Shown piece after piece: positions 7,994-31,545 of a DNA stretch of 64,000 nt; the first letter of the stretch is position 1, and the number at the start of each line of letters is the position of its first letter. The translations under genes and the position numbers were made by a program. Origin of the DNA: Candidatus Omnitrophota bacterium (GTDB taxonomy: Bacteria; Omnitrophota; Gorgyraeia; Gygaellales; Gygaellaceae). The notes below the pieces were generated by a model, which saw only the letters and a program-made list of their open reading frames with translations, searched no databases and was not told the DNA's origin. The stretch is taken from contig JAGYNB010000002.1 of assembly GCA_018400015.1 (NCBI GenBank), positions 180,555 through 244,554 on the forward strand. The letters run 5' to 3'.

Positions 7994-8004
7994 TAAAATT
8001 ATGA

Positions 8005-8033
8005 TTGACAACAGGTTTTGACTCTGATATATT
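8005..8033 (+). promoter_or_regulatory. sigma70-type promoter upstream of mreB (TTGACA-17-TATATT)
   Basis: TTGACA at 8005-8010, 17-nt spacer, TATATT at 8028-8033, about 28 nt upstream of the mreB ATG. Confidence 0.55.
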
Positions 8034-8060
8034 TAACACATTAAACAATTGGAGTTAAAA

Positions 8061-9146: not shown

Positions 9147-9155
9147 AAAAATGTA

Positions 9156-9938: not shown

Positions 9939-9943
9939 TTATT

Positions 9944-15128: not shown

Positions 15129-16529
15129 ATGATTAAGCTATTTAAGAAAACGTCTATTTCTTCCAGGGGATTGCGTAGCAAGTTAGCCGTTGCTTTTGCG
15201 TTAACCTCGACCATTCCAATTCTTATAAGCGTTTATCTGATTTCACAAATTACCGATGTTTCCACTTTGGATTTACGTATCGGTTCATTTTTGATTTTGA
15301 GCCTTCTTATTGCTGTTTTTGGTTATTTTGTCTTAAACAACATAATCAATTCCATTATAAAAACTAGCAAAAAAGCTAATGCTTATATACAAGGCCAGAC
15401 TTTTGGTGGAATAAAGATTTCAACCGATGATGAGATTTCCGATTTGAATAAGGCTATTGATAAACTTAATGACCGTATAAGGGAAAATATGGAAAAGTTA
15501 AGTTTTTATGATAAGCAAACTAAGCTAGTCGGTATGGATTTGAATAAGAAAGTAATCGCTCTTTCAAGTCTATTGCAAATCGGTAGTTTTATTTCTTCGA
15601 GCAATAAAATTGATGATATTTTTTCTTTGGTTGTAGGAAAACTTTCGAATATTGAGCCAAGTTTTGAAGTATTCTTGTTTTTGGAGAATAAAAATAATGA
15701 GTTTTCTCTCGATTTTGCTTCGAATCAGGAAAAGATTAAATCTAATGTATTTACTTTATCCAGCGATTCAAAAAGAATTGTTCAGGCAATAACCAGCAAC
15801 GAACCTTTAAGATTGGATATTTCTCATTCTGAGTCTAAGACTTTAGAGCGTTTAGGAGAAATATTCAACATCAGTAGTATAGTTATTTTTCCTATTTTTG
15901 CTTGCGAACAGACAAAAGGGCTCCTAATTGTCGCTAGCACAAAAAACGATTATGCTTTTGAGGCAGGCGATATTGAACTTATAAGGTTATTTGCCCGTCA
16001 GCTTGCAATAGCTTTGGAGAAGAACCAGCTTTTTAACAAAGCGAAGAAATTGGAGACAAAAGATGAATTAACTGGTTTATACAACGAAAGTTTTATTCGA
16101 GATCGTCTAAATGAAGAGATAAAACGCGCTTTTGTTTCCCAGAGGCCGTGTTCTTTTGTTCTTTTCGGAGTGGATAAATTCCAGAATTACCTGCAGCGAA
16201 AAGGTCAGGACGGGGCGGAAGTTTCTTTAAAACATATTGCTTCTTTATTGAAAGAGTCTTCTCGGGAAATTGACAAGCCTGGTCGTTTTGGGTATTCTGA
16301 CTTTGCATTGTTATTGCCGGAAATGAATAAAAAGGAAGCGATTAATCTTGCGGAAGAGATCAGGAACAAGGTTGCTTTTGTTTTTAAAGAAGAAGACGCT
16401 GGTCTTCGTCTGACAATTTCAGCTGCTGTCAGTGAAAATCCGATTGATGGGATAAAAGCCGAAGAATTGATTTCCCATGCAAGAAATCTTTTATCGAATA
16501 AAGATTCAGACAATAAGGTTTTTCGCTAA
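15129..16529 (+). CDS. membrane-anchored GAF-like + degenerate GGDEF domain protein (PelD-like c-di-GMP receptor candidate)
   Basis: Two N-terminal TM helices and a HAMP-like linker; GGDEF-domain start LTGLYNESF; signature degenerated to GYSDF; RxxD I-site retained (REIDKPGRFGYSDF). Confidence 0.6.
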   Translation: MIKLFKKTSISSRGLRSKLAVAFALTSTIPILISVYLISQITDVSTLDLRIGSFLILSLLIAVFGYFVLNNIINSIIKTSKKANAYIQGQTFGGIKISTDDEISDLNKAIDKLNDRIRENMEKLSFYDKQTKLVGMDLNKKVIALSSLLQIGSFISSSNKIDDIFSLVVGKLSNIEPSFEVFLFLENKNNEFSLDFASNQEKIKSNVFTLSSDSKRIVQAITSNEPLRLDISHSESKTLERLGEIFNISSIVIFPIFACEQTKGLLIVASTKNDYAFEAGDIELIRLFARQLAIALEKNQLFNKAKKLETKDELTGLYNESFIRDRLNEEIKRAFVSQRPCSFVLFGVDKFQNYLQRKGQDGAEVSLKHIASLLKESSREIDKPGRFGYSDFALLLPEMNKKEAINLAEEIRNKVAFVFKEEDAGLRLTISAAVSENPIDGIKAEELISHARNLLSNKDSDNKVFR

Positions 16530-16531
16530 TA

Positions 16532-16981
16532 ATGTTTTCTCCTTTTAGGAAGGTTGTAAATAAACAATTAGGTGAATTGCTGGTTGAGCATAAAATTATC
16601 AGTGAGGCGCAATTAAAAAAAGCCCTTGTGTTGCAAAGCCAGCGTAGCGGCGCTTTAATCGGAGAATTGATAGTAGAGCTTGGTTATGCAAAGGAAGAGG
16701 ATATTGCCAATACTCTGGCAGCCCAGTACGGTTTTCCTTATTTGCCTTTGGATAATTATTCGGTCGACGATAGTATTATAAAATTGATACCGAAGAACGT
16801 TGCGAGTCAGTACTGTTTATTGGCAATAGATAAGCTTGCCAATTCAATTGTCGTAGCCACAAGCAATCCTTTGAACACCCAGGCAATCGAAGACGTTGAA
16901 TATATTACTAATTGTGATGTTCGTGTTTTTATCTCTACGGCAACGAGCATTAGAAAGAAAATCAAAGAGTACTACCAATAG
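16532..16981 (+). CDS. stand-alone MshEN / T2SS-E N-terminal domain protein (putative c-di-GMP binding)
   Basis: 149 aa; tandem MshEN-type motifs KQLGELLVEHKIISEAQLKKALVLQ and ALIGELIVELGYAKEEDIANTLAAQ followed by the GspE_N fold (YGFPYLPL). Confidence 0.7.
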   Translation: MFSPFRKVVNKQLGELLVEHKIISEAQLKKALVLQSQRSGALIGELIVELGYAKEEDIANTLAAQYGFPYLPLDNYSVDDSIIKLIPKNVASQYCLLAIDKLANSIVVATSNPLNTQAIEDVEYITNCDVRVFISTATSIRKKIKEYYQ

Positions 16982-16984
16982 TAA

Positions 16985-18715
16985 ATGGCAACATTAAAAG
17001 AAAACTTAACCAATATTCTTATCGATAATAACCTTATTACGCGTGAGAATTTGGAAAAGGCTATTACTACACAAAAAAAACAAGGTGGTAGTCTTAGTCA
17101 GATACTTATAGATTCTGGTTTCGTAAAAGAAAAAGATTTGGTTATTGCCTTAAGCCAAGGTTTAGGAATCCCACCGATAAATTTAAATAAGATAAAAATA
17201 GATAAACAAGTTGTAAAACTTATTTCTCAAGAAGTAGCGCAGCGTTATCTTATTTTGCCTATTTCTCAAGTCGGCGCGACTTTAACCGTTGCCATGGCAG
17301 ATCCTTTGAATGTTTTTACTTTGGACGATTTGAAAACCCTTACGAGTATGAAGATCAATCCTGTTATAACTACTGCTAATGATATTAAGGATGCGATTAA
17401 GAATTATTATGTAGACGATCAAAAGCAGGAAGATGCAAAAATCGACGATATCATCAAGGATATTTCTACTGCGGATATAGAGCTGGTTAAAGAGTCCGAG
17501 GATAAGGAAGAGAACATAAGTTTTATGCATATGGTCGATGATGCACCTATTGTAAAAATCACCAATAGGTTCCTTAGCGATGCAGTTAAGCTCAATGCAA
17601 GCGATGTTTTGTTCGAACCGTTTGAAAAGACAACGCGTGTAAGATGTCGCGTTGACGGCGCATTAAGAGAAATAGAAACTCTTCCCAAATATATGCATGA
17701 AGCAATAGTGTCTCGTACTAAAGTTATTTCTGGGCTTGATATCTCAGAACATAGGCTTCCTCAGGACGGGCGTTTTAAGATAAAATTCCAGTCTCGAGAG
17801 GTTGATTTTAGAATTTCTATTCTGCCGTCGGTTTTCGGAGAAAAAGTTGCTTTGCGTGTTTTGGATAAAACAACCGCAATGCTTGATATTGAGAAACTTA
17901 ATTTTTCAGAGCATAATCTTAATATCCTCAAACACTGTTCTTCTTTTCCGCACGGTATGATGCTTGTTTGCGGTCCTACTGGTTCAGGTAAGACCACTAC
18001 ACTTTATTCCATTCTTAAATATGTGGATAGCCCTGAAAAAAATATTGTTACCGTAGAAGACCCTGTTGAATATCAGCTTCATGGAGTAAATCAAGTGACT
18101 TGTCGGCCTGATATCGGCCTGACATTTGCTGCAGCACTGCGTTCCATATTAAGGCAAGACCCCGATATAATAATGGTTGGTGAAATTAGGGATTTTGAGA
18201 CTTTGGATATTTCCATAAAATCAGCTCTTACCGGACACATGGTTTTAAGTACGCTTCATACGACGACAGCTCCCGGTTCAATTATCAGAATGTTGAATAT
18301 GGGCGCGGAACCTTTTTTGGTTACGTCCTGTGTAGTTGGTGTTATTGCTCAAAGGTTAGTGCGCAAGTTGTGTCCAAAATGTAAAGAAGCATATAAACCT
18401 TCTAAGGCAGTCTTAGATACTTTAAGTGTTGCCGGGGATATTAAAGAAAGCGTTACTTTTTATCGGGCAAAAGGTTGTCCGGAATGTTTTAATATAGGTT
18501 TTCGCGGAAGGCTGGCAATATGCGAAGTGCTTGTTTTGACACACGAAGTTAAAAATTTGATTTTAAAACGGGCGCAGGAGCATCAGATTAAGAAGATGGC
18601 TCGTTCGCAGAGCATGCGAACTTTAAGAGAAGACGGTATTGATAAAATAATTGCTGGTTTAACCACACCGGAAGAGGTATTAAAGGTTACCGCTTCTGAC
18701 GTAAAGGCAGAATAG
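16985..18715 (+). CDS. pilB: type IV pilus assembly ATPase PilB/GspE family (paralog 1)
   Basis: GspE_N domains, Walker A GPTGSGKTT, Asp box, Walker B, His box, tetracysteine CPKC...CPEC zinc site; 576 aa. Confidence 0.85.
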   Translation: MATLKENLTNILIDNNLITRENLEKAITTQKKQGGSLSQILIDSGFVKEKDLVIALSQGLGIPPINLNKIKIDKQVVKLISQEVAQRYLILPISQVGATLTVAMADPLNVFTLDDLKTLTSMKINPVITTANDIKDAIKNYYVDDQKQEDAKIDDIIKDISTADIELVKESEDKEENISFMHMVDDAPIVKITNRFLSDAVKLNASDVLFEPFEKTTRVRCRVDGALREIETLPKYMHEAIVSRTKVISGLDISEHRLPQDGRFKIKFQSREVDFRISILPSVFGEKVALRVLDKTTAMLDIEKLNFSEHNLNILKHCSSFPHGMMLVCGPTGSGKTTTLYSILKYVDSPEKNIVTVEDPVEYQLHGVNQVTCRPDIGLTFAAALRSILRQDPDIIMVGEIRDFETLDISIKSALTGHMVLSTLHTTTAPGSIIRMLNMGAEPFLVTSCVVGVIAQRLVRKLCPKCKEAYKPSKAVLDTLSVAGDIKESVTFYRAKGCPECFNIGFRGRLAICEVLVLTHEVKNLILKRAQEHQIKKMARSQSMRTLREDGIDKIIAGLTTPEEVLKVTASDVKAE

Positions 18716-18717
18716 TT

Positions 18718-20439
18718 ATGGTTAAGTCTTTAAGGGACAAGATTCTTGATTATTTATTGGAAGAAAAGAGGATTAGCAAAAGCGATATCGAACGGTTTTC
18801 TAAACTTCAGGAAAAGAGTAATCTTAAGATGGAAACTATTCTTATCGATAATGGTATTATTTCTGCCCAGGAGTATTTATCCATGCTGGCAAGGGAAACC
18901 AATACACCTGTAGTTTGTCTTGAGAGGATTGAGTGTGATCCGGAGATTTTAAATATTATACCGGAAAGAATATGCCAACAGTATAGTATTTTTCCTGTTG
19001 CCAAACTGGGGAATTTACTTACTTTGGCTATGTCTGACCCGATGAATATTTTTGCCATGGACGATATTAAGTCTTTAACATCTTTTGAAATTAATACGGT
19101 TTTAGCCAGCGAAGAAGATATTAAGAAAAACATACAGTTTTGGTATGAGGAATCAAAGAATAAAGATATATCCGAGTTGATTGGAGAGGTCAGCGAAGAA
19201 GAGATCAACGTTGTTGGTGAAATTAAGAAAAGGGAAATTGAAGGACAGTTTGATCTTGACAGGGCAATGTTTGAAGCTGAAGAATCTCCTGTTATCAAGC
19301 TGGTTAACCTTATGCTTAGTGAATCTTACCAGAAAAGGGCTTCGGATATTCATATTGAACCAGAAGAAGATTTTTTAAGGGTGCGCTATAGAATTGACGG
19401 TATGCTGCATGACGCTTACCAGATTCCCAAAGAAAAGCAGAATGCTGTAATCACGCGTATAAAGATAATGTCCAATCTGGATATTACTGAGTTTAGAATT
19501 CCTCAGGATGGCCGTTTTAAGATCCGTTTAGGGCAAAACGAAGTTGATTTCCGTGTATCAATTTTACCGATTAGTTTTGGGGAAAAGGTAGTTATGCGTT
19601 TGTTGGATAAACGTAATCTTTCTATTGGTCTGGAGAAATTAGGATTTTTAGCTGAGCCAATGCAGAAATTCAAAGATTGTATTAGTAAGCCATACGGAAT
19701 GATTCTTGTAACAGGGCCTACAGGGTCGGGAAAATCAACTACGCTTTATTCAATTATTAACCAGCTTAACACGTCCGCAACTCATATAATTACCGTAGAA
19801 GACCCTGTTGAGTATCAGATTGAAGGTATAGCGCAGATTCCGGTTAAGGCGGATATCGGTCTTACGTTCTCTGCTGGGCTTCGGGCGCTTTTGCGTCAAA
19901 GCCCTGATATTATCTTAATCGGTGAGATCAGGGATTCCGAAACTGCCGATATTGCCGTTAAGGCATCTCTCACCGGGCAGATGGTTTTATCGACGCTTCA
20001 TACCAACGATGCTGCAGGAGCAATAACCAGACTTATCGATATGGGCGTTGAACCGTTTTTGGTTTCTTCGAGTTTAATCATGACTTGTGCTCAGCGATTA
20101 AGTAGAAAAATATGTTCAAACTGTAAAGAAGAATATACGCCCGATCCAACGGTAGTAAAAAATCTTGGAATAAAATTGGAAAAAGACTCTGTTTTTTATC
20201 ACGGAAGAGGATGTTCTCATTGCAATAATACGGGTTATCGTGGTAGAATAGGGACAATAGAGGTTTTGGTAATTGATGATAAGATCAGAGAGATGATAAT
20301 CAAAAGAGTCTCATCTGATGAAGTCAGAGAATATGCCGTAACTCAAGGCATGGAGACATTAAGGGATAATGGCCTGCGTCAGGCAGCAATTGGTCTTACG
20401 ACCTTAGAAGAGGTTTTAAGAATCACTTCAGAGGAATAG
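18718..20439 (+). CDS. type IV pilus assembly ATPase PilB/GspE family (paralog 2)
   Basis: Same architecture as paralog 1: Walker A GPTGSGKSTT and CSNC...CSHC zinc site; 573 aa; has an N-terminal domain, so not PilT-like. Confidence 0.85.
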   Translation: MVKSLRDKILDYLLEEKRISKSDIERFSKLQEKSNLKMETILIDNGIISAQEYLSMLARETNTPVVCLERIECDPEILNIIPERICQQYSIFPVAKLGNLLTLAMSDPMNIFAMDDIKSLTSFEINTVLASEEDIKKNIQFWYEESKNKDISELIGEVSEEEINVVGEIKKREIEGQFDLDRAMFEAEESPVIKLVNLMLSESYQKRASDIHIEPEEDFLRVRYRIDGMLHDAYQIPKEKQNAVITRIKIMSNLDITEFRIPQDGRFKIRLGQNEVDFRVSILPISFGEKVVMRLLDKRNLSIGLEKLGFLAEPMQKFKDCISKPYGMILVTGPTGSGKSTTLYSIINQLNTSATHIITVEDPVEYQIEGIAQIPVKADIGLTFSAGLRALLRQSPDIILIGEIRDSETADIAVKASLTGQMVLSTLHTNDAAGAITRLIDMGVEPFLVSSSLIMTCAQRLSRKICSNCKEEYTPDPTVVKNLGIKLEKDSVFYHGRGCSHCNNTGYRGRIGTIEVLVIDDKIREMIIKRVSSDEVREYAVTQGMETLRDNGLRQAAIGLTTLEEVLRITSEE

Positions 20440-20440
20440 A

Positions 20441-23400
20441 ATGCAAAAAGATCTAATTATCTATATAGATGAGTTAACCGACCTTTACAATAGAAGATAC
20501 CTTTCCCAGGTTTTCCCCAAAGAAATTAAAAAAGCACAAGAAAAAAATTATAACCTTTGGTTTTTCATGATGGATTTGGATAACTTTAAAGGTATTAATG
20601 ATACATTAGGCCATTTAGCCGGAGATGATGCTTTAAAAAATCTAGCTGACATCCTAAAGAAGAATATGCGTGAGCAGGATATACTCTTTAGGTACGCCGG
20701 AGACGAATTTTCCGCAATTATTCCCGGAGGTACGCTTAATGATGTTTTGGCCGTTGCTAAAAGAATCTTAGAAAATGTCGCCAAATCTTCTTTTGGGTCT
20801 AATCCTATGCAGCCGGCAATAAAATTCACCGTGAGTATCGGAGTGTCTTGTTTTCCTGAAGATGCTGTTGAGCCCTTACGGTTAATCGATTTGGCTGACA
20901 AGGCGCTTTATGTATCAAAGCGAAAAGGCAAGAATCATATTTCCGTAGTAAGCGATGTTCCTCCAGAAGTATTAAGTCTTTATCAGACCCTAGAAAAGTT
21001 TCCTTGTCCTGTTTTTATTGATAGAGTCGAGGAATTAAACCGGCTTCTCAAATCCAGCGATGAACTTGCTAATCAAAAAAATAAAAAGAATATTTTCTTA
21101 TTTGGCAATTCCGGCATTGGAAAAACAAGGATATTACAGGAATACGGGAAAAGACTTTCCAGCAAAAACTTAAATTTGATCATTACCCGTGCAAGCGAAA
21201 AAGATCTTTTTACAAATTACCATATTTTTATAGAAGGGATATCCGGATACTTTAAAACCCATAGTTTTCAGATGGAGTTGTTGGAAGGTTTAGACGAAAG
21301 ACATAAATCCATACTTGTAGGTTTTATTCCGGAATTAAAAAGGTTTATTTCTGTTTCCGACGATGAGCTTAAAAATCTTTCCGGCAAGGCGATAAAAGAT
21401 GAAGACATAAAGATAATTTTTAAGAAATTCATTTCAAATATTACCAGAAGAAATTCTTCGGTTCTCGTAGTAGATGATTTGCAGTGGGCAGACAAAGCCA
21501 GCTTAGATCTAATAAAAGAATTTCAATCCAGCAATGATACTTTGATGGTTATTGCATCTATTTCCAGCGATTATATTGCCCAAAAAGAAACCCCGTTAGT
21601 GTTAAACGAATATATAACCAAAAATTTTCTTTCTTTTGAGAGGATTGATGTTGAGCCTTTCAATAAAGAAGAGATCGGCAAAATGGTCAATGCTGTTTTT
21701 GGTTCCCTTGAGAATTTGAATGAGTTTATTGCTTTGGTGTATTCGGTTACAAAAGGATCACCTTTATTTGTCGAAGAATTATTAAAATATTTTATTAATC
21801 GTGGGTTTGTATTTTATCGTAAGGGTAAATGGGGCTGGCTGGATATAAGAAGAGAAGATATCCCGTCAAGTATTGAAGAAGTTGTTGCTCAGCGTATCAA
21901 ATCGTTAAGCTCGGAATTAAAAGAAGTTATTACCCAGGCCTCTGTAATCGGTGAGGATTTTGAAGTAAATCTTTTGCAGAAGTTAGGCAAAAAGAATCAG
22001 GGTTATGTTATGGACTTGATTGAAACTGCCAAAAAATCCGGTCTCATACGAGAGGAAAAAGGTGCCGAAGGGGTAAGGTTCGTATTTACCAGTGCTAAAG
22101 TAAGGGATGTTTTATACGGCCTGGCTGATAAAAACCAGGTTAAGAATTTGAACCGCCAGATCGGCCAGATAAAAGAAGAGATTTACAAAGGTAATGAGGA
22201 TCAGGTGGCCGGCGAGCTGTACTACCGATTTAAAAAAGCAGAAGATGGCAAAAAAGCCTCTCGTTATGCAAAGATGGTTAAAGAAGGCCGATCTTTTGTT
22301 TATGAAAAAAGTATTCACTTCGCCAAGGGTCTTCTAGAAGAGGTTCAGGTTAGCGAACAGGAAATTCCCGATAAGGCAATTGATGTTGTTTCAGATATTA
22401 TTCGTCTTATTTACGTTTCGCAGATAAACAGCAGTCTTTACCCTAAAGGAAGCTCGATGCGCACTCAGCCATTGGCGGATTTGATAGCAAAAATGAAAAG
22501 TATTTTTGAATATGTGTTGGTGGTAAGTTTTAGTCATTTTAACGAATTTTTGGTTATTAATAATAGAATTTATGACAAGGAAAGTTTAAAAGAGACGTTT
22601 AAAAATGCTTTTATCGGGTTATTGAGGCAGAATAAAATCGAAAAAATCTCTTTTACTCCCAGTTTAAGCGTTGAAGAACTGGAAGATTTCTTGGAGTTAT
22701 TTGAAACCAGCGAAAAGGAAGGATTTAAGAATAAATTTCATCAGGAATCATTTCCTAATATCAAGGTTGAATTTATAAGTTATGAGAATTATCTTTCCAA
22801 AAGAACTAAAGACAGAGAGCAATTACAGGATATAATGCTTCTTGATTATCTTTTAGGCAAAGTTCCCGGAGAAGGTTTACAAGACAAAATGAGTATTCTT
22901 GATAAGATCCAGACGCATAGCCAGGATATTGCTTCAGCGTTAACACAGATGGCGGATAAAGTAAGTAAACAAAAAGGAGTGGATAAGGATTCCGCTCGAG
23001 CGGATATTCTTTCCGATAATTTTAAAAAGATCGCCCAGCATATTTTTAATAAAGGTGAAGGCGCTTGGGATAAATATAAAAAGGGTCTTGCTAAGACAAT
23101 ACTTTCACTTGAGCCTAATCTGCGTGAAGAATTTTTTCATAAACAGTTAAAAGAAGAGCAGGTAAAACAAGATGATATTGTTGAAGATGAGGTTGTTTCA
23201 GAAGTTTCAGAAGATGATGTTTCTGCACAGGAGGATGTTTCAACCGATGAATTAAGAGAAAAGACCCAAGAAGAAGAGCCTCGGCAGGATATTATCAAGG
23301 CTTTAGCTGGTGAATTTCCAGAAGACGTTGTTCTGGACCTTATAAAAAAAGAATACAAAGAGGGAAATAACAGCCCCGAACAATTTAAAGAGATAGTTTC

Positions 23401-24607
23401 TAAGTTTTTACCAGAAGATAAAGAACAAAAGAAAGCACTTTTAGACAAAATTATCAATACGTTAAAAGAAAACGGTGCGAAAGAAGAAGAATTGAAATTC
23501 CTTACCCAGGAAGAATCTTGGCCAAACCTTAGTTTTAGCGAAAAAATCATAGATTTTCTGAATATGAACGCTGATCGGTATGTTTATATCTCAAAGCAGT
23601 ATGGTTTTGCTTCGGTAATGGAATTCGCGCTCTCTTCCGATACAGAACAGGTTAAGAAAATACTGGAAAGGTTGGTTTATTTTATAGAGTCAGATACTCC
23701 CGAAGCGGTAAATATCGCAAAACAGGATCTTTTGGCGTTGATCGATTTAGTGTTTACTTTTAAAAAGGGTGAATTCTTGGAGTTGTTGCTTAATACATTT
23801 TTGTCTGAATTACATAAAGAACACAATAAAGAAACTATATCAATTTTTATCAATAATATCGAAAAACTCACCTATGTAGTTTTTTCAATGTCCGCATTTG
23901 ATTTGTTTACCAAGGTAATTAATGAATTAAGAAAGCTTATTAATGAAACTGACACCTTAGCTGATATAAAAGCCAATATCAATTTGGTTTTGTCTCATAT
24001 TTGTTCAGAGGAAATAATCCAGCGTCTTATTGAGCGGTTATTCAATTATGTTGATAATAATGAGGATTACGCACAGATTGCTCATGTTTTTGTCGCAATC
24101 GGGAAATCCGCAGCAAATAAGCTGATTGACGAGGCAATGTTCGAGAAAAATATAAATATCGTAGGTTATTTCGGGGGATATCTTAGAAGAAAAGCAGTGG
24201 GTAATATTTTAAACATGATGGATAAAAATGAAGTTATGGAGTTTATCAAGGATAGGCTTCAAAATGAAAAGTGGTTTATTGTACGTAATACCATTGATCT
24301 GATCATGCATATAGATAATCCTGAATATATTTCTTTGCTTGATATAGTAAAAGATAACAATGATTCCCGAGTGAGAAGAAAATTGCTTTTTGTCTTGGGT
24401 AGATTTAAGAGTAAACAGGCACTGGATATTTGTTATTCTCTTGCAAACGATAGAGATGATGCTATTGCCATGGGAGCGATAAAATTAATTGCTTCAATCG
24501 GAGAGAAAGACTCTGTTGAGTTCTTAAATAATTTAAGTGTAAAACATTCTTTACGCGATGAAAAGAATAAAGCTATTGAAGAATTAAAACAGAGATTAAA
24601 TAAATAA
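20441..24607 (+). CDS. 1388-aa multidomain signalling protein: GGDEF domain (AGDEF variant, with I-site) + AAA_16/STAND-type P-loop NTPase + C-terminal HEAT-repeat array
   Basis: N-terminal LTDLYNRRYL...REQDILFRYAGDEF (20696-20710) with RxxD I-site; P-loop LFGNSGIGKT (about 21103-21126) and hhhhDDLQWAD Walker B typical of AAA_16; acidic linker; HEAT/PBS-lyase-like repeats near the C-terminus (RVRRKLLFVLGRF...AIAMGAIKLIASIG). Confidence 0.7.
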   Translation: MQKDLIIYIDELTDLYNRRYLSQVFPKEIKKAQEKNYNLWFFMMDLDNFKGINDTLGHLAGDDALKNLADILKKNMREQDILFRYAGDEFSAIIPGGTLNDVLAVAKRILENVAKSSFGSNPMQPAIKFTVSIGVSCFPEDAVEPLRLIDLADKALYVSKRKGKNHISVVSDVPPEVLSLYQTLEKFPCPVFIDRVEELNRLLKSSDELANQKNKKNIFLFGNSGIGKTRILQEYGKRLSSKNLNLIITRASEKDLFTNYHIFIEGISGYFKTHSFQMELLEGLDERHKSILVGFIPELKRFISVSDDELKNLSGKAIKDEDIKIIFKKFISNITRRNSSVLVVDDLQWADKASLDLIKEFQSSNDTLMVIASISSDYIAQKETPLVLNEYITKNFLSFERIDVEPFNKEEIGKMVNAVFGSLENLNEFIALVYSVTKGSPLFVEELLKYFINRGFVFYRKGKWGWLDIRREDIPSSIEEVVAQRIKSLSSELKEVITQASVIGEDFEVNLLQKLGKKNQGYVMDLIETAKKSGLIREEKGAEGVRFVFTSAKVRDVLYGLADKNQVKNLNRQIGQIKEEIYKGNEDQVAGELYYRFKKAEDGKKASRYAKMVKEGRSFVYEKSIHFAKGLLEEVQVSEQEIPDKAIDVVSDIIRLIYVSQINSSLYPKGSSMRTQPLADLIAKMKSIFEYVLVVSFSHFNEFLVINNRIYDKESLKETFKNAFIGLLRQNKIEKISFTPSLSVEELEDFLELFETSEKEGFKNKFHQESFPNIKVEFISYENYLSKRTKDREQLQDIMLLDYLLGKVPGEGLQDKMSILDKIQTHSQDIASALTQMADKVSKQKGVDKDSARADILSDNFKKIAQHIFNKGEGAWDKYKKGLAKTILSLEPNLREEFFHKQLKEEQVKQDDIVEDEVVSEVSEDDVSAQEDVSTDELREKTQEEEPRQDIIKALAGEFPEDVVLDLIKKEYKEGNNSPEQFKEIVSKFLPEDKEQKKALLDKIINTLKENGAKEEELKFLTQEESWPNLSFSEKIIDFLNMNADRYVYISKQYGFASVMEFALSSDTEQVKKILERLVYFIESDTPEAVNIAKQDLLALIDLVFTFKKGEFLELLLNTFLSELHKEHNKETISIFINNIEKLTYVVFSMSAFDLFTKVINELRKLINETDTLADIKANINLVLSHICSEEIIQRLIERLFNYVDNNEDYAQIAHVFVAIGKSAANKLIDEAMFEKNINIVGYFGGYLRRKAVGNILNMMDKNEVMEFIKDRLQNEKWFIVRNTIDLIMHIDNPEYISLLDIVKDNNDSRVRRKLLFVLGRFKSKQALDICYSLANDRDDAIAMGAIKLIASIGEKDSVEFLNNLSVKHSLRDEKNKAIEELKQRLNK

Positions 24608-25077
24608 TGCCATTTAAAAGACAACCCATTTACAAAAAGCAGTTGCTGGGCCAGATTTTCTTAAAAAGCGGAATTATTTCCAAAGAGCAACTTAAGGAAG
24701 CGCTTGAATCACAAAAGAAAGAAGGCGGTTTTTTAGGCGGCGTATTGATAAAATTAGGTTATCTTACGGAGATGGATTTGGTTATGGGGCTTTCCAGTCA
24801 GTGTAGCATACCGTATCTGCCGCCCTTAAGGTACAAGATTCCTAAAAATGTTTCTGAAAATTTAAGCGAAGAATTGTTGCGTAAAAATAGCTTTGTTCCG
24901 ATTGATAAATTTCATGATACATTAACTGTTTGTATGGTTAATCCTTTGGACGATCGCTCAATAACAGAGATTACAAATATTACTAATCTTGAAGTTCTTG
25001 TCTGCATTGCCACCAGAGATGAAATTGAGAAAGCGATTAATAACCTATATAAAAAATCTGGTAAAAATGCGTTGTAA
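24607..25077 (+). CDS. stand-alone MshEN / T2SS-E N-terminal domain protein (putative c-di-GMP binding), second copy
   Basis: 156 aa; both 24-residue motifs intact (QLLGQIFLKSGIISKEQLKEALESQ and FLGGVLIKLGYLTEMDLVMGLSSQ) followed by GspE_N fold; ATG overlaps the stop of the giant gene. Confidence 0.7.
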   Translation: MPFKRQPIYKKQLLGQIFLKSGIISKEQLKEALESQKKEGGFLGGVLIKLGYLTEMDLVMGLSSQCSIPYLPPLRYKIPKNVSENLSEELLRKNSFVPIDKFHDTLTVCMVNPLDDRSITEITNITNLEVLVCIATRDEIEKAINNLYKKSGKNAL

Positions 25078-25145: not shown

Positions 25146-26351
25146 ATGGCTCAGTTTAAATATTATGCAAAAGATAAAAAAGGAGCTTCTGTTAATGGTG
25201 TTTTGGAAGCAGAGAATAAGAATGTTGTTATCGAAGAGTTAAGGCGCAGACAGTTAACGATAATTTCCTTAAAGGAAGCAAAAAAAGCATTCAGTATCGG
25301 AGGTCCAAAGAAAGTCAGCGCTGATGATCTGGTAATTTTCTCTAGACAATTATCCACAATGGTAAATTCCGGTATTCCTTTGGTGCAGTCATTGGATATT
25401 TTAGGTGAACAGCTTGAGAATAAAGAGTTTCGTTCGATAATTATGACCATAAGAGACGATATCCAGACTGGCCTCAGTCTTTCCGGTGCGTTTGCAAAAC
25501 ACCCCAAGGTTTTTTCAACACTTTATATCAATATGGTCAAAGCCGGCGAGACTTCCGGTATGCTCGATGAAATATTAGACAGGCTGGCAATATATCTGGA
25601 AAAATCCAATTCTTTGAAGAAGAAAATAAAATCGGCCATGATTTATCCTGCTTTGGTTTTTAGCATGGCGATTATTATTACTTCAGGATTGTTGATTTTC
25701 GTTGTTCCTCAGTTTAAATCTATTTTTAGCTCTTTTGGAGGTAAACTTCCGTTGCCAACACAGATTTTGATTGCCATAAGCGATAATTTCTCAAAGATAG
25801 TACCTGCTTTGATTGTAATGTTGATCCTTGCCGCAGTTATATTTTCGCGTGTTATTAAAACGCCTAAAGGAAGATATAAGTTTGATCAGTTCAAATTAAA
25901 GGTATTTATTTTTGGCAAGATGTTTCAGATGGTTGCGGTCAGTAGATTCTCTAGAACGCTTTCGACTTTGGTAAGAAGCGGTGTTTCCATTCTTACAGCT
26001 TTAGATATCGTTTCCAAGACAACGGGGAATAAAGTTATTGAGCAGGCGTTAGATAACGTAGGTACTAATATAAAAGAAGGTAAATCTATTGCGTTGCCGT
26101 TAGCGGAAGCAAAGATATTTCCTCCTATGGTTGTAAGGATGATTTCCGTAGGCGAACAGTCCGGAGAACTGGAGAAGATGTTGTCAAAAATCAGTGATTT
26201 TTATGATGAACAGGTGGATATTGCCGTATCGGGCTTATCCAGTGTAATCGAGCCTGTAATTATTATATTCTTGGGTGTTGTGATCGGTTCTATCGTTATC
26301 GCTATATTTTTGCCGATTTTGAAGATGTCTTCTCTTGTTGGGGGCATGTAA
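25146..26351 (+). CDS. pilC: type IV pilus inner-membrane platform protein PilC (GspF family)
   Basis: Two T2SSF repeats and three TM segments; 401 aa; RBS GAGAAAGGA. Confidence 0.85.
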   Translation: MAQFKYYAKDKKGASVNGVLEAENKNVVIEELRRRQLTIISLKEAKKAFSIGGPKKVSADDLVIFSRQLSTMVNSGIPLVQSLDILGEQLENKEFRSIIMTIRDDIQTGLSLSGAFAKHPKVFSTLYINMVKAGETSGMLDEILDRLAIYLEKSNSLKKKIKSAMIYPALVFSMAIIITSGLLIFVVPQFKSIFSSFGGKLPLPTQILIAISDNFSKIVPALIVMLILAAVIFSRVIKTPKGRYKFDQFKLKVFIFGKMFQMVAVSRFSRTLSTLVRSGVSILTALDIVSKTTGNKVIEQALDNVGTNIKEGKSIALPLAEAKIFPPMVVRMISVGEQSGELEKMLSKISDFYDEQVDIAVSGLSSVIEPVIIIFLGVVIGSIVIAIFLPILKMSSLVGGM

Positions 26352-26356
26352 GAGGC

Positions 26357-26824
26357 ATGAGAAAAAGTTTTTCTCTAATTGAGTTAGTGTTTGCTCTTGG
26401 AATATTGGGTCTTGTAGCAGCGACTTTCATGATGAGTTTTGCCAATTATTCTAATCTTAATGAGACCAATATTAATGTTAACCTAGCATATATAAAGGCC
26501 CGTTCGGTTGTTGAAGAATTGCGTTCCATCGATGATTCAGATGAAGGAGATTTAAAGACTGCGAAGGATAGCTGTGGTACTGAAAAATTAGTAGAAAACG
26601 GTCTTTTGGAAGGAGTTGGCCAGCCTGACACAGGGATTTATTCAGTGTATCTGAAGTGTCTAAGGGATGCAGGCGGGTCGTGTCTTGACAGGACATTTGA
26701 TGTAACGGTATCATTGTGTTGGGTGCAGTCAAACGGAAGAGTAATTGGCGAAAGGGATTCTGATAACGAAGAATGCGAAGATTCTATCTATGAATATACC
26801 AGCAGTTTTACCACTGCTAAATAA
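26357..26824 (+). CDS. type IV pilin-like protein (major pilin candidate; atypical Ser at position -1)
   Basis: N-terminus MRKS/FSLIELVFALGILGLVAA with Glu+5, hydrophobic alpha1-N helix, Cys-rich C-terminal region; 155 aa. Confidence 0.6.
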   Translation: MRKSFSLIELVFALGILGLVAATFMMSFANYSNLNETNINVNLAYIKARSVVEELRSIDDSDEGDLKTAKDSCGTEKLVENGLLEGVGQPDTGIYSVYLKCLRDAGGSCLDRTFDVTVSLCWVQSNGRVIGERDSDNEECEDSIYEYTSSFTTAK

Positions 26825-26827
26825 AAG

Positions 26828-27445
26828 ATGATTTCTAAAATTAAGCTTTTTTCCAGAAAAGGTTTCAGCATACTGGAGTTGATTACGGCGATTGGGATTT
26901 TTTCGTTTTTGACCATATTTTTATTTTCCGGGATTATTACCGTGCGCAATATCTGGCTTAAGTCTTCTGCAAAGATAAAATTGGTTGATGAAGGGATGAA
27001 TGCTTTAAGCGTTATGAAATCAGAATTAGCCCAGTCAGGCAGGGATTATTTTAAGATTACGAATTCAGCTAGCGATTATTGCGCCAACAATGATACTAAT
27101 ACCGGGAGTTTGATTATTTTTCCTGTACCGATTTTAATTAGTGGTAAATATCATGATATCAACGGATCAATTAATTGGGGATATGACGGCGATACGAATA
27201 AAAAAATTCGCTATAGAGTCTATGATAATAAGCTTTTTCGTGAGATAGCAGATACGTCTTCAAGCTCTTGCGATACTATCGAGAGCAAAGTATTAGCTTA
27301 CAATATGGATAGCGACTCGCCTGTTACTTTTGAGTATGATACCGGCAGTCACACGATAGCACTAACTATTAATTTAGAAGATAGGGATTTTGCGAGTAAT
27401 GAAGTTGATTTAAGCCTGGAAGAGATTATTTACCCGGAAAATTAA
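26828..27445 (+). CDS. prepilin-type N-terminal cleavage/methylation domain protein (minor pilin or pseudopilin)
   Basis: Canonical G/FSILELITAIGIFS prepilin motif with Glu+5; 205 aa. Confidence 0.65.
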   Translation: MISKIKLFSRKGFSILELITAIGIFSFLTIFLFSGIITVRNIWLKSSAKIKLVDEGMNALSVMKSELAQSGRDYFKITNSASDYCANNDTNTGSLIIFPVPILISGKYHDINGSINWGYDGDTNKKIRYRVYDNKLFREIADTSSSSCDTIESKVLAYNMDSDSPVTFEYDTGSHTIALTINLEDRDFASNEVDLSLEEIIYPEN

Positions 27446-27458
27446 GAAGGTGTGACCT

Positions 27459-29906
27459 ATGAAAAATAAAAAAGGAATTGCAATAATCGTGACATATTCT
27501 ATATTGGTGCTTTTGTTGATTTTATCCGTTGCGTTTATGTACCAAAGTATTAATGCTAATTATTTGAGCAAAAGAAGAGTTTCAAATAACAAAGCGCGCG
27601 CCAATGCAGAAAAAGGCATTGCGCTCATAAAAAGAGAGCTTGGTTTTAGAAGCCAGAGCAATCCGTTGATCACGCATTCAGTTAACGCTTCCACAGACGC
27701 CTTAGAAAGTAATAATATCAATCCTTCATTACATGTACCAGGTGTTTCCATATTTAATGACGACAGCCAGCCTGATATAGACGGTTGTTTCAATGGCTAT
27801 GATGACGATTCAAATCTTATTTTTAGGGTTAAAACATTCAATAAAGAAAGTTCTTCAGGGGATGTGGTTATTATCAGTCAGGGCATTGACGCAGATAGCA
27901 AAGCATATTTGGCTTCCACGCTTAGTTCTTCCAGTCTTTACCAATATTTTATGTTTTATGAAGGTAAGACATATTTTTTTGGTTCAACTAATATAGACGG
28001 TAAAGGTATAGGAAAGATATTTGTCAATGGTGATGCGGGTTTTACCAGTCCCCAGCTTAAAGATTTGGCTAGTTTTGAAGTTGCCGGAGACATGAGCAAT
28101 TATTATTACGGGTATCTTAATCCCTCTATTTTGGATAGTTTAGCTGCAGACGGCCCTGGTATCACTAACGGTGCTCCCACCCCTTGTCTTTATGTGGATA
28201 CATCTGTTGCCGACCCTGATTATGACTATAGCGATCCCGCTAATCCCGCCAAGCATGATTTTAATGGCGATGGAGTGGTTAATTATAAGGATTGGATATA
28301 TTCTCCTGCTGACCCTCAACCGTGGAACGATAATTCAAGTGCTTATGCCCGGTTTCAGCCGTATACAAGCACTCCTTATGAATGGCGTGACATAGATACG
28401 CATTTTTATAATCCGTCTGGTTTCGGTGACCAGTTTATTTTTACTTCAGAAAGCGGAGCAGTTTCTGATTATGGTTTTAATCTTCCCGGCAACGGAGACG
28501 AATCTGCACTATCAACTTCTTGGGACTTTAATTTATTTGGCAGTGCTTCCAGTTATGATGATATAACCTGGCAGTATTATGATTACCAGACCGGTACGAT
28601 TAAAGCTGCGGACAGTGACTATTGGGATTTTGTAGAGGATAGGTATGGTTTGGAAATTCCTGATTATTTAAGGAATTTAGGTAGTGTTGAAACGCAGTCT
28701 GTCAATTATCTGAATACGGAAAAGCAGCCTGAGTGGCAGTCTTGGCTTGACGGTAAATCAATATCAATGGATGACGGTAGTACTAAAACCTTAGGTGAAA
28801 TAATTAAAACCGACCAGGATTCGATCACCCAGCCCGAGGTAAGCACTTATTATTATGATTTGGCTAATGATCCGGCAACAGGAATATATATAAATCCTGC
28901 GCAGTTGATTAATGGAACTGTTACCGATGAAAAAGTCCAGAAATTAATCGATGAGCAATGTATTACAGTCACGCAGTTTTATAATAATGTTTATCCGGCT
29001 TATGATAAAAAAGGAACAACCAATAATCCAGAAGACGATATTACTTATCCTGAGAAGTCAGTAAAAATTGATGTTGCCTGCGTAAAGGCTTTATCTGATG
29101 ACGCTTCAGATTCAGTGAAAGCTAATATTATTTATGTCGAAGGGGTAAAAACTTCCGTACAGGGCCAGGAATGGGATAATACGCCCGCCGCCGGAGAATA
29201 TAAAAATCTTCCTGTTTCTACGCTGTTGGTTAATGGCGAAAGCGTTCCCGAAGGGGGCTTAACTGTAGTTGCCCCTTATCAGGTATATGTAAAAGGAAAT
29301 TTTAATACTGTTGATCCCCAGTCGTCATCGGTTATCACAAATTCATATTATTATGCAATTTCTGATAATTATCAGGATTATGGAACTGACAGGGAGAGTA
29401 TTGCCTCGACATGCAGTGGGGATTTTTATGATTCCAATTGCGACGGCCCGCAGCATTTGCCAGGACTTTATGATTATTATACAGACATATACGGGAAAGT
29501 AGGCGCTTTGGAATATCCCTATGAAGCAAATGAGGCAGTGAATTATCCGGGTAAAAATAATCCTGAAGTCAATGGCGGTAACTATGACGGTAATTTTACT
29601 CAAAGAATATCTTTAGTCAGTCCTAATCCGTCAGTTTATTTTATTGGCAGAGGCTCAGGCACTTTGAATCGGATTGGTTCGATTATTGAGTCTAAAAGTT
29701 GGGGAGCTTATTATACTCCAGGTGCGTATGATCGCGGCAGGGTCAATTACGGTAATCCTATTGGTAGGTACAGTTCACTTGGATTAAAACAAGCTTACGA
29801 TACAATGCTGGAAACAGACAAACCTCCGGGTGATTACAGCGGCACCTCTAGCGGTTTGTTTGTTGAGGTATCGGAAAATGATTTTTTAGTTAATACTAAA
29901 TTTTAA
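27459..29906 (+). CDS. large PilX_N-domain pilus-associated protein (putative tip or adhesin protein, PilY1-like role)
   Basis: N-terminus KKGIAIIVTYSILVLLLILSVAF resembles PilX_N; 815 aa rich in D/N/Y/G/S; contains an EF-hand-like loop DFNGDGVVNYKD (about 28257-28292). Confidence 0.55.
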   Translation: MKNKKGIAIIVTYSILVLLLILSVAFMYQSINANYLSKRRVSNNKARANAEKGIALIKRELGFRSQSNPLITHSVNASTDALESNNINPSLHVPGVSIFNDDSQPDIDGCFNGYDDDSNLIFRVKTFNKESSSGDVVIISQGIDADSKAYLASTLSSSSLYQYFMFYEGKTYFFGSTNIDGKGIGKIFVNGDAGFTSPQLKDLASFEVAGDMSNYYYGYLNPSILDSLAADGPGITNGAPTPCLYVDTSVADPDYDYSDPANPAKHDFNGDGVVNYKDWIYSPADPQPWNDNSSAYARFQPYTSTPYEWRDIDTHFYNPSGFGDQFIFTSESGAVSDYGFNLPGNGDESALSTSWDFNLFGSASSYDDITWQYYDYQTGTIKAADSDYWDFVEDRYGLEIPDYLRNLGSVETQSVNYLNTEKQPEWQSWLDGKSISMDDGSTKTLGEIIKTDQDSITQPEVSTYYYDLANDPATGIYINPAQLINGTVTDEKVQKLIDEQCITVTQFYNNVYPAYDKKGTTNNPEDDITYPEKSVKIDVACVKALSDDASDSVKANIIYVEGVKTSVQGQEWDNTPAAGEYKNLPVSTLLVNGESVPEGGLTVVAPYQVYVKGNFNTVDPQSSSVITNSYYYAISDNYQDYGTDRESIASTCSGDFYDSNCDGPQHLPGLYDYYTDIYGKVGALEYPYEANEAVNYPGKNNPEVNGGNYDGNFTQRISLVSPNPSVYFIGRGSGTLNRIGSIIESKSWGAYYTPGAYDRGRVNYGNPIGRYSSLGLKQAYDTMLETDKPPGDYSGTSSGLFVEVSENDFLVNTKF

Positions 29907-29917
29907 ATAGGCATTTA

Positions 29918-30571
29918 ATGGCGCAAATAAATTTACTACAGACGAGAGCGGTTTTAAAAACTAAAAAAGCAAAGGCGGATAAAGGTGCTGCCAGCGCTAA
30001 GAAGTTTTCTTTTGACTTTAAAATTGACTTTCGCAGGATGCCCAGGTGGTTTTTTGCCATTGCCATAGGCTGGATTGTTTTTTTGGCACTTGGTGAAACG
30101 ATAATGATTTTAAAGTTAAATGATTCCAAGCGAAAACTAAAGATCCTTGAAACAGAAGGCAGTTTTTTTTCAAAAAGCCCCAAAGAGATAGAGGATTTAA
30201 AAAAGAAGAAAAAAAGCCTTCAGGACGCCTTAGGAATTATCGAAGGATTTCTGATTACCAAAACGCCTTTTTCACAGGCGCTTAATATTATAAGTGATCA
30301 GATAATTGACGGGGTTTGGCTTGAGAAGATATTTTTTAATTCCAAGAAAATCGGTAAAGACAAAGAAGAGATCACTATAAAAATAAACGGTAAAGTTTAC
30401 TCGGCAATCTCGCAAGAGCAGATAGATATATTGGGACAGTTTTCCAATGGTTTAAAAAATAATCCTTATTTTGAATTATTGTTTAGCAGTTTGCAGGTTG
30501 GTAATCTTAAAAATGTAGATTATATGGGATTTGATGTTTTGGATTTTGAAATGGAGGTATCTTTAAGATAA
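29918..30571 (+). CDS. pilN: type IV pilus assembly protein PilN-like
   Basis: N-terminal INLLQTR (INLLP-type) motif, single TM segment, periplasmic coiled-coil plus ferredoxin-like region; 217 aa. Confidence 0.7.
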   Translation: MAQINLLQTRAVLKTKKAKADKGAASAKKFSFDFKIDFRRMPRWFFAIAIGWIVFLALGETIMILKLNDSKRKLKILETEGSFFSKSPKEIEDLKKKKKSLQDALGIIEGFLITKTPFSQALNIISDQIIDGVWLEKIFFNSKKIGKDKEEITIKINGKVYSAISQEQIDILGQFSNGLKNNPYFELLFSSLQVGNLKNVDYMGFDVLDFEMEVSLR

Positions 30572-30575
30572 TATT

Positions 30576-31157
30576 ATGGACTTTGATATTAAAAGAATTA
30601 TAGAATGGGTTAAGTTTAGGAAAGTGGAAGTTTCTATTCTTGCGGGGTTATTTGTTATTGGCCTAATATTATCATTTTTGCTATTTCAACCACAGGCGAG
30701 AAAAATCCAGGAATACAATAATTCCTTAATCTCAAGCTCTAAGGATACAAGCAATCTGCGTACAGCGCAAGTAGAATTAAACGAGTTAAAAAAAGAAATT
30801 ACTGTTATTGAAGAGACTTTAGCAGAACATGAAAAAAAACTCTTTTCTCAGGAAGATACTCAGGCATTTTTAAATTATATAAACAGGCTCGCGAAGTTTT
30901 ATAACGTGCGCATTCTAAAGATCAATCCTTTATCACAGGTTGAAAACGAAGTTAAGTCTTTGGATAAGGTGTATCTGGCAATGCCTTATCGGTTGAGTTT
31001 AACCTGTAGCTATCATAATCTAGGGAAATTCCTGAATAAACTTGAGCAGTCAAAGGATAGTTTTGTAAGGGTTGATAGTTTGTCTATACAGGCCGACAAC
31101 AGCAATATGAGAGAGCATAAAGTGGAGTTAGGGATAACTATTTTTTCCATTAAATAA
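30576..31157 (+). CDS. pilO: type IV pilus assembly protein PilO-like
   Basis: Single N-terminal TM segment then coiled coil; size and position between pilN and pilP. Confidence 0.6.
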   Translation: MDFDIKRIIEWVKFRKVEVSILAGLFVIGLILSFLLFQPQARKIQEYNNSLISSSKDTSNLRTAQVELNELKKEITVIEETLAEHEKKLFSQEDTQAFLNYINRLAKFYNVRILKINPLSQVENEVKSLDKVYLAMPYRLSLTCSYHNLGKFLNKLEQSKDSFVRVDSLSIQADNSNMREHKVELGITIFSIK

Positions 31158-31158
31158 T

Positions 31159-31545
31159 ATGAAAAAGATAATTTTATTAATTATGTTTTTGAGTTTCTCA
31201 ATAATTGCTAGTGCCAGTGAAAATGATTTTGAACAAAGGCTTAATTTTGTGTATAATGATAATAATAAGCGCGATCCGTTTATCCCTTTACTTGATAAAG
31301 ACGGGTTGCGACCAAGATCGGATTTATTTGAGAAAGCTGAACTTCCGATAAAAATTGATCTATCAGGTATTGTCTGGAATAAACAAGTGCAATTTGCTAT
31401 AATTAATGGTAAAATAGTGAAAGAAAATGAAGAAGTTACAAGAGGTCTTACTTTAGAAAAAATTAATTCTGATAACGTGGTTTTAGAGTATGGAGGAAGA
31501 AGTACTAAGGTGTATATAGGAGGCCCTAAGAAGGATGATAAGTAG
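31159..31545 (+). CDS. pilP: type IV pilus assembly protein PilP-like
   Basis: Signal peptide, conserved RDPF motif (NKRDPFIPLL), C-terminal beta domain; 128 aa. Confidence 0.6.
   Translation: MKKIILLIMFLSFSIIASASENDFEQRLNFVYNDNNKRDPFIPLLDKDGLRPRSDLFEKAELPIKIDLSGIVWNKQVQFAIINGKIVKENEEVTRGLTLEKINSDNVVLEYGGRSTKVYIGGPKKDDK

Follow-up and report, generated by a model that had tools for sequence, protein, structure and literature searches.

Four MshEN domains in a type IVa pilus operon

We analysed a stretch of 64,000 nucleotides (nt) from a Candidatus Omnitrophota bacterium (assembly GCA_018400015.1, contig JAGYNB010000002.1, positions 180,555 to 244,554), hereafter called the window. An open reading frame (ORF) listing combined with Pfam and NCBIfam scans showed that it carries one co-directional type IVa pilus operon. 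This operon encodes two PilB-type ATPases and two small free-standing proteins of the MshEN family, a receptor domain for cyclic di-GMP (c-di-GMP). The small proteins, of 149 and 156 amino acids (aa), are called M149 and M156. A six-frame search with a profile of M149 homologues detected exactly four MshEN domains in the window, namely those of M149, PilB1, PilB2 and M156. The genes concerned and the tandem half-sites of the c-di-GMP motif are listed below in window coordinates.

15129..16529, + strand: GAF-GGDEF-like protein, 466 aa (Pfam GGDEF 80.5 bits, plus GAF)
16532..16981, + strand: M149, a free-standing complete MshEN (four-helix N-subdomain plus alpha/beta C-subdomain), predicted c-di-GMP receptor (Pfam, NCBIfam)
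16565..16636, + strand: M149 half-site I, residues 12-35 (QLG...Q)
16655..16726, + strand: M149 half-site II, residues 42-65 (LIG...Q)
16985..18715, + strand: PilB1, PilB/GspE-type extension ATPase with its own MshEN, 576 aa (T2SSE 442 bits, TIGR02538 641 bits)
17003-17161, + strand: PilB1 half-sites, residues 7-59
18718..20439, + strand: PilB2, second PilB-type ATPase, 573 aa (T2SSE 452 bits, TIGR02538 633 bits)
18739-18897, + strand: PilB2 half-sites, residues 8-60
20441..24607, + strand: GGDEF-STAND NTPase-HEAT protein, 1388 aa (Pfam GGDEF 147 bits, AAA_16, HEAT_2)
24607..25077, + strand: M156, second free-standing MshEN protein, 156 aa (Pfam, NCBIfam, AlphaFold (AF2) fold)
24643-24714 and 24730-24801, + strand: M156 half-sites, residues 13-36 and 42-65

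PilB1 and PilB2 were assigned as PilB/GspE extension ATPases from their T2SSE cores, from the GPTGSGK[TS]T Walker A and the two CxxC motifs (tetracysteine) found in each, and from their place in an operon with PilC, PilM, PilO and a secretin. Both scored slightly under the TIGR02538 equivalog cutoff of 675.65. No PilT-type ATPase was found anywhere in the 64-kb window, and none of the locus proteins scanned with Pfam matched PilZ or EAL.

Fold and half-site residues

All four domains passed the 23.1-bit cutoff of Pfam MshEN (PF05157, GSPII N-terminal domain), with 59.0 bits for M149, 56.3 for M156, 75.9 for PilB1 and 60.3 for PilB2. Identity between the M149 domain and each of the remaining domains lay at 24-32%. 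AF2 models of M149 and M156, with predicted local distance difference test (pLDDT) values of 86 and 85, displayed the two-subdomain MshEN fold of a four-helix bundle and an alpha/beta part. They superimposed on the MshE-c-di-GMP structure 5HTL with target-normalised TM-scores of 0.78-0.83 and root mean square deviations of 2.3-2.7 Å. This structure was the best PDB match of M149, and both models also matched the GSPII domains of Thermus PilF. The modelled C-subdomain of M149 matched the N1E domains of EpsE/GspE that were crystallised with EpsL/GspL, which are paralogues of PilM.

In MshE, the 24-residue half-site reads RLGxx(L/V/I)(L/V/I)xxG(L/V/I)(L/V/I)xxxxLxxxLxxQ, the G11I/L and G40I mutations abolish c-di-GMP binding, and the relaxed search motif still demands Gly at position 3 (PMC5013675). 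The backbone amides of Gly3 contact guanine in the MshE half-sites, which are separated by a spacer of 5 residues. For the Gln residues, a double Gln-to-Glu mutant of Thermus PilF GSPII-B (Q190E plus the Gln218 change) eliminates binding.

The register of the half-sites was set by the NCBIfam model NF053729 ('c-di-GMP_motif', 53 positions, cutoff 38 bits). M149 contains QLGELLVEHKIISEAQLKKALVLQ and LIGELIVELGYAKEEDIANTLAAQ separated by 6 residues, and M156 contains LLGQIFLKSGIISKEQLKEALESQ and FLGGVLIKLGYLTEMDLVMGLSSQ separated by 5. The corresponding half-sites are NLTNILIDNNLITRENLEKAITTQ and SLSQILIDSGFVKEKDLVIALSQG in PilB1, and KILDYLLEEKRISKSDIERFSKLQ and KMETILIDNGIISAQEYLSMLARE in PilB2. 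Gly3 was present in 4/4 half-sites of the two small proteins versus 0/4 in the two ATPases, and Gln24 in 4/4 versus 2/4, the ATPases keeping it only in motif I. Position 2 was Leu or Ile throughout the four half-sites of M149 and M156. PilB1 carries Thr (motif I) and Ser (motif II) at position 3, and Gly at position 24 of motif II; PilB2 carries Leu, Glu and Glu at the same three positions. M149 and M156 are both true and complete MshEN domains, in which the Gly and Gln positions that contact the ligand are preserved.

A sequence-only reading of this DNA had proposed that the motif is preserved in the 149- and 156-aa proteins and that both PilB proteins have lost its Gly residues. Both proposals agree with the residue counts, and the loss extends to the second half-sites of PilB1 and PilB2, which had gone unmentioned and which are also degenerate, with Gly10 retained. 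The PilB2 segment quoted in that reading was out of register (28 residues), and its consensus, beginning with RLG, did not apply at position 1. No Arg occurs there: M149 has Gln (preceded by an invariant Lys) and Leu, and M156 has Leu and Phe. An extended consensus admits R, K or L at this position (PMC11731258). In GSPII-B, Lys and Leu instead of Arg raise the affinity, and a hydrophobic residue there predicts high affinity. The lack of Arg in M149 and M156 therefore need not speak against binding.

Calibration of the motif model

A profile alignment had been suggested as a check on the small proteins. M149 (52.7 bits), M156 (55.9) and PilB1 (50.7) passed NF053729, while PilB2 (27.4) fell below the cutoff. 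Among orthologues, the scores were 64-72 for M149, 55-58 for PilB1 and 33-46.5 for PilB2 (3/4 above 38). Characterised binders scored 61-86, but the non-binding GSPII-A of PilF also reached 54.0, within the 51-56 bits spanned by M149, M156 and PilB1. The alignment thus confirmed that the small proteins match the model but did not separate them from PilB1 or from a non-binder, and we discarded the score as a discriminator. Since a proven non-binder passes, the model sees the helical scaffold and not binding competence, and a pass is uninformative for PilB1 and equally so for M149 and M156. An argument from the resemblance of PilB1 to GSPII-A was also set aside: the N-terminal fragment of PilB1 matched GSPII-A best, but so did full-length M149.

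Conservation across the phylum

The scan of species genomes yielded at least 491 loci, of which the best 80 were analysed. The protein collection held more than 2000 M149 homologues; among the best 120, nearly all were 145-151 aa long, and those with a source name were from Omnitrophota/Omnitrophica. The same length was kept in hundreds of M149 clusters. The closest M149 among the genomes scanned was that of a Candidatus Gygaella obscura metagenome-assembled genome, with 95% identity. An exact-sequence look-up found neither the M149 nor the M156 of the window on record.

Gly3 was present in 80/80 M149 proteins in both motifs. In half-site I, Leu2 and Leu17 were likewise found in 80/80 and Gln24 in 77/80; in half-site II, Leu1 and Gln24 occurred in 80/80 and Gly10 in 78/80. 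The spacer of 6 residues in the window is 5 in most orthologues. PilB1 orthologues had Gly3 in 0/79 cases in motif I and 1/79 in motif II, where Ser was found in 74/79, and position 24 of motif II was Gly in 60/79 and Gln in none of the 79. For PilB2 orthologues, the values were 0/59 and 4/59 for Gly3 in motifs I and II, and 26/59 for Gln24 of motif II. The loss of the motif Gly in the ATPases thus holds phylum-wide. Because it is kept in 80 species genomes, the Gly3 contrast lies far beyond chance; the pattern goes back to a small number of ancestral changes that have since been kept, and does not represent 80 independent ones.

Mean pairwise identities, calculated over 54 genomes, were 72% for the N-subdomain and 70% for the C-subdomain of M149, as compared with 58% and 42% for the N-subdomains of PilB1 and PilB2. 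The ATPase cores reached 68-70%, with that of PilB2 at 70%. Purifying selection on M149 is as strong as that on the ATPase cores, and among the N-subdomains the free copy is under the strongest constraint, as its 72% against 58% and 42% indicates. The PilB2 copy of MshEN is drifting, whereas that of PilB1 has become fixed in another state. Both ATPases retain the domain without Gly3 and without Gln24 of motif II, so these residues are dispensable for folding.

In all 78 loci where the contig continues, PilB1 lies directly downstream of M149 and is followed by PilB2. The gap between M149 and PilB1 ranged from -79 to +315 nt in these 78 genomes, with roughly equal frame offsets (22/23/33). In the window, M149 ends with TAG TAA, followed by the ATG of PilB1, and the two genes are in the same frame, one codon apart beyond the stop. 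The variable spacing and frame together with the double stop identify M149 and PilB1 as independent genes; readthrough, a frameshift and a split gene were ruled out on the same grounds, and the arrangement is not that of a PilF-type single-chain ATPase with several GSPII domains. PilB1 and PilB2 still carry the full two-subdomain MshEN. M149 is therefore an additional ancient paralogue and not a detached piece, and the earlier idea that the sensing module was split off from the ATPases does not hold.

Upstream of M149, all 80 loci contain the GAF-GGDEF-like gene, which is the immediate neighbour in 75/80 and ends 2 nt before M149 in the window. In the other five loci, a PilT-like gene lies between the two. 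In the window, the A-site of the GAF-GGDEF-like protein is degenerate (GYSDF), and its I-site is of the RxxD form (REID). Degeneracy of the A-site extends over the whole phylum, where variants such as GDDEF, GDNEF and ADDEF occur and canonical GGDEF was seen in 2/80; the RxxD motif is shared by a minority of orthologues. Judging from these residues, the protein is probably not a cyclase.

A wider search of 1.84 billion cluster representatives returned 16,484 clusters at E<=0.001. Among the top 150 clusters, 55 had representatives of 130-200 aa, which is an upper bound for stand-alone proteins. Short representatives were rejected as a direct count of these, as at least one, P0269, proved to be a PilB truncated at a contig end. 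Four more divergent, complete stand-alone MshEN proteins (35-42% identity to M149) whose gene context was usable each lie directly before a PilB-like gene without Gly3 in its N-terminal half-sites. Among the long relatives were NfrB-like glycosyltransferases and, resembling Thermus PilF, ATPases with 2-4 MshEN domains. By the Rosetta-stone argument, such fusions of multiple MshEN domains to T2SSE, found in other lineages, favour a functional connection of the extra domains with PilB motors.

Several other architectures were seen. M149 relatives of 212-221 aa (P0005-P0010, P0056, P0059), one of them labelled Omnitrophica by its source, have a duplicated N-subdomain with up to four intact half-sites and a single C-subdomain. 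Metagenomic fusions (P0168, P0162, P0144) join MshEN to a DnaA-type AAA ATPase (454 aa) or to PilZ and DUF7305 (723 aa), and the same group includes proteins of three MshEN domains alone (473 aa).

M156 and the 1388-aa protein

The M156 family is small and lineage-restricted, comprising 19 proteins whose named sources are Omnitrophota. In an alignment of 17 sequences, G15, Q36, G44 and Q65 were invariant. The sequence-only reading had placed one free MshEN protein before each ATPase-side gene block. This is correct for M149 and PilB1, but M156-type genes stand ahead of pilC and always after the 1388-aa-type protein (6/6 loci).

The 1388-aa-type protein occurs in a few loci only. Its length is about 1380 aa in six loci, and it consists of an N-terminal GGDEF domain, a STAND/AAA_16 NTPase, a long unassigned middle and C-terminal HEAT repeats. 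All six orthologues have an AGDEF A-site and an RxxD I-site, and from these motifs the protein is a probable diguanylate cyclase. AGDEF reportedly serves as an active site in V. cholerae VCA0965 and is said to be degenerate in NbdA.

A gene for a REC-HD-GYP phosphodiesterase (about 356 aa) was found in the PilB-PilC region of 41/80 loci (L009, L010, L015 and 38 others), mostly between PilB2 and PilC. The window has no REC-HD-GYP gene; there, the position between PilB2 and PilC is taken by the 1388-aa gene and M156. One locus, L081, combines REC-GGDEF, REC-HD-GYP, large GGDEF-STAND-HEAT and M156-type genes. M156 may be a second receptor that is specific to this lineage and has an AGDEF cyclase of its own as partner; the 1388-aa protein and M156 would then form an accessory local source-and-sensor module inserted before pilC.

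Remaining operon genes and surroundings

The operon continues downstream of M156 with the following features.

25146..26351, + strand: PilC/GspF platform protein (Pfam T2SSF 225.6 bits; NCBIfam PilC models about 420 bits)
26357..36046, + strand: remaining type IVa pilus genes through PilM (Pfam scan)
31535-33100, + strand: secretin (Pfam scan)
34970-36046, + strand: PilM (Pfam scan)

Between 26357 and 36046, the order is two pilin-like genes, genes for an 815-aa and a 217-aa protein (both of unassigned family), PilO, a T2SSB/C-like gene, the secretin, a coiled-coil/TPR protein and PilM. This order is unusual in that pilM comes last (31159-36046), behind the T2SSB/C-like gene, the secretin and the 626-aa coiled-coil/TPR protein. 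The 815-aa protein (27459-29906), encoded after the two pilin-like genes, has a hydrophobic N-terminal segment and no Pfam match; it may be a pilus tip or adhesin component.

Upstream of the operon (6686-15035) lie genes for EPSP synthase, MreB, MreC, MreD, PBP2 and RodA, plus a radical-SAM gene. A divergent locus (L085) has the same upstream synteny without the radical-SAM and GAF-GGDEF-like genes. Every substantial ORF of the window (1-64000) is on the + strand and the GC skew is positive in each 2-kb bin; the whole window is presumably co-oriented and on one replichore.

Interpretation and alternatives

We favour the reading, at roughly even confidence, that M149, a protein of 17 kDa, is the dedicated predicted receptor through which the type IVa pilus of Omnitrophota perceives c-di-GMP, standing beside two motors whose own MshEN domains are degenerate. 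M149 would bind c-di-GMP, perhaps with high affinity owing to a hydrophobic position 1 as in Thermus GSPII-B, and the MshEN domains of PilB1 and PilB2 would bind it poorly or not at all. Ligand-bound M149 would then act in trans on the PilB motors by one of two routes. It could enter or reshape the ring of N-domains in PilB1/PilB2, or its ND1/N1E-like C-subdomain could compete or cooperate for the docking site on PilM. The ND1/N1E subdomain of GspE/EpsE binds GspL/EpsL, the PilM paralogue. In both cases, pilus extension would be gated. Enzymes of the c-di-GMP type are abundant in the operon, with the AGDEF-containing GGDEF domain in the window and REC-HD-GYP in about half of the loci (41/80).

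Several observations weigh against this reading. Gln at position 1 of M149 motif I and Phe at position 1 of M156 motif II fall outside the published R/K/L. The M149 of the window combines Lys at position 10 of motif I with a 6-residue spacer. On these two points, position 10 of motif I is Asn in the PilB of M. xanthus, which is reported to bind, and the binder GSPII-C of Thermus has a 7-residue spacer (PMC12002112). In the M156 model, an extended helix alpha1 covers the pocket, which is also seen in the apo forms of GSPII-A and GSPII-B. Restoring the consensus of GSPII-A did not make it bind, owing to its capped, extended helix and inter-subdomain contacts, so that an intact motif, though required, is not enough for binding. 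Finally, two lines of evidence did not discriminate. The NF053729 scores fail to separate binders from non-binders, and a distance-matrix (mirror-tree) comparison was discarded as a means of choosing the partner of M149: all candidates correlated (r 0.67-0.88, partial r 0.36-0.63), with shared phylogeny dominating.

The degeneracy of the motor domains can also be read differently. PilB1, and perhaps PilB2, might still bind c-di-GMP or a related dinucleotide through altered motifs, leaving M149 as an extra sensor whose affinity differs, much as the affinities of GSPII-B and GSPII-C are graded, but separately encoded. In motif I, PilB1 keeps Arg/Lys1, Leu2, the hydrophobic positions including Leu17 and Leu21, and Gln24, and PilB1 and its orthologues reach 50.7-58 bits on NF053729, with 3/4 PilB2 orthologues above the cutoff. 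The strong conservation of Ser at position 3 of PilB1 motif II (74/79) points to constraint and not to drift, and PilB1 may thus retain some ligand binding or bind in an altered way; Ser, Thr and Ala at this position are not known to have been probed singly. Still, the relaxed published motif continues to require Gly3, the replacement of which abolished binding, position 24 of motif II carries Gly in PilB1 and Glu in PilB2 instead of Gln, GSPII-A reaches 54 bits on the same model without binding, and the PilB2 N-subdomain is only 42% conserved. We therefore regard this alternative as rather unlikely. Quite unlikely, in our judgement, is a ligand-independent role of M149 as a structural or adaptor subunit, for example as a decoy N-domain at the PilM/PilC docking site or as a part completing the PilB ring, with the motif conserved for fold or interface only. 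Such a role would suit a C-subdomain that is as conserved as the N-subdomain (70% vs 72%) and resembles the GspL-binding N1E, and motif integrity was no guarantee of binding in GSPII-A. However, the PilB domains fold without Gly3 and Gln24 of motif II, yet these residues are invariant in M149 (80/80) and M156 (17/17), and c-di-GMP enzymes surround the locus.

M149 might also bind c-di-GMP and serve something other than the motors, whether the adjacent degenerate GAF-GGDEF protein, a non-pilus output or the buffering of c-di-GMP. The close upstream position of the GAF-GGDEF-like gene (75/80 loci) fits this idea, and the distance correlation of M149 with the GAF region (partial r 0.50) was about that with the PilB N-domains (0.50-0.63). 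On the other hand, the divergent locus L085 keeps MshEN, PilB, PilB, HD-GYP and PilC without a GAF-GGDEF gene, the PilT-like gene separates the two neighbours in five loci, the adjacency of M149 and PilB1 is complete (78/78), and MshEN-ATPase fusions exist. We consider such a target unlikely. It is extremely improbable that M149 is the front end of a PilF-like ATPase with several MshEN domains, interrupted through a nonsense mutation, a misassembly or a stop codon that is recoded: the shared frame and one-codon distance in the window would allow it, but the stops are consecutive, the gap and frame vary over the 78 genomes, and the length of 145-151 aa is kept in hundreds of clusters.

Comparison with known systems

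MshE (5HTL), M. xanthus PilB and C. perfringens PilB2 have the same two-subdomain fold and tandem 24-residue half-sites as M149 and M156. The key residues shared with the MshE type are Leu2, Gly3, the hydrophobic positions and Gln24. In these systems, the domain is fused to the regulated ATPase, whereas in Omnitrophota it forms a polypeptide of its own, degeneracy marks the copies that are fused, and position 1 is Q/L/L/F and not Arg. Thermus thermophilus PilF likewise has several MshEN/GSPII domains per motor, some competent (GSPII-B, GSPII-C) and some not (GSPII-A). Its GSPII-B is Arg-free with a hydrophobic position 1 and has nanomolar affinity, and the second half-site of GSPII-A (SLA...R) resembles that of PilB1 (SLS...G). 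All PilF domains belong to one chain, while the Omnitrophota operon places the competent-looking domain in a separate gene and has two ATPases.

A signal delivered in trans to a motif-less, MshEN-like PilB N-domain through docking proteins is known from the PilB-PilZ-FimX system of Xanthomonas and Pseudomonas. There, the receptor is the degenerate EAL protein FimX with a non-binding PilZ bridge, whereas the presumed receptor in Omnitrophota is an MshEN paralogue; neither a PilZ adaptor nor a GGDEF-EAL receptor was found among the scanned locus proteins. Acinetobacter baylyi also has two extension ATPases, PilB and TfpB, and a small separate protein, the inhibitor CpiA, that targets one of them. 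CpiA is strain-specific and possibly prophage-derived, with no nucleotide sensing described in the review consulted, in contrast to the phylum-wide conservation of M149. In E. coli, the dedicated cyclase DgcJ feeds the MshEN receptor NfrB, analogous to the 1388-aa AGDEF protein and M156, but NfrB has its MshEN fused to a glycosyltransferase, while M156 is free-standing and lies in a pilus operon.

In the searchable literature, whose coverage is incomplete, we found no description of stand-alone MshEN proteins, of c-di-GMP in Omnitrophota or of such a sensor-motor arrangement, and no mention of c-di-GMP or MshEN was found in the literature on Omnitrophota pili. What we infer to be new is the placement of a known receptor domain in a conserved, trans-encoded arrangement.

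Significance

The pilus of uncultivated Omnitrophota has been proposed to mediate host attachment (PMC10066038). A more speculative extension of the favoured reading, which we consider doubtful, is that the dissociable MshEN subunit is a shared c-di-GMP-loaded selector. It would decide which of the sensor-blind motors, PilB1 or PilB2, engages PilM/PilC, and would thereby switch the pilus mode (e.g. attachment versus host attack) in ultra-small, host-dependent bacteria, with the same logic of a free MshEN followed by a sensor-blind PilB recurring in divergent uncultured lineages. If this were true, it would define a general, overlooked class of stand-alone c-di-GMP receptor.

MshEN is one of the few widespread receptor domains for c-di-GMP, and the characterised cases that we found are all fused to the enzyme they control. 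The current model behind the 'c-di-GMP motif' annotation does not distinguish proteins that bind from those that do not, which makes it necessary to check individual residues. With 149 residues, M149 is a soluble, clonable entry into second-messenger control of the Omnitrophota pilus. If the favoured reading is correct, the operon would represent a new wiring, an MshEN counterpart of the FimX-PilZ-PilB solution. The conserved gene and residue patterns suggest a phylum-wide arrangement in which the signal may reach the motors through a detachable sensor subunit.

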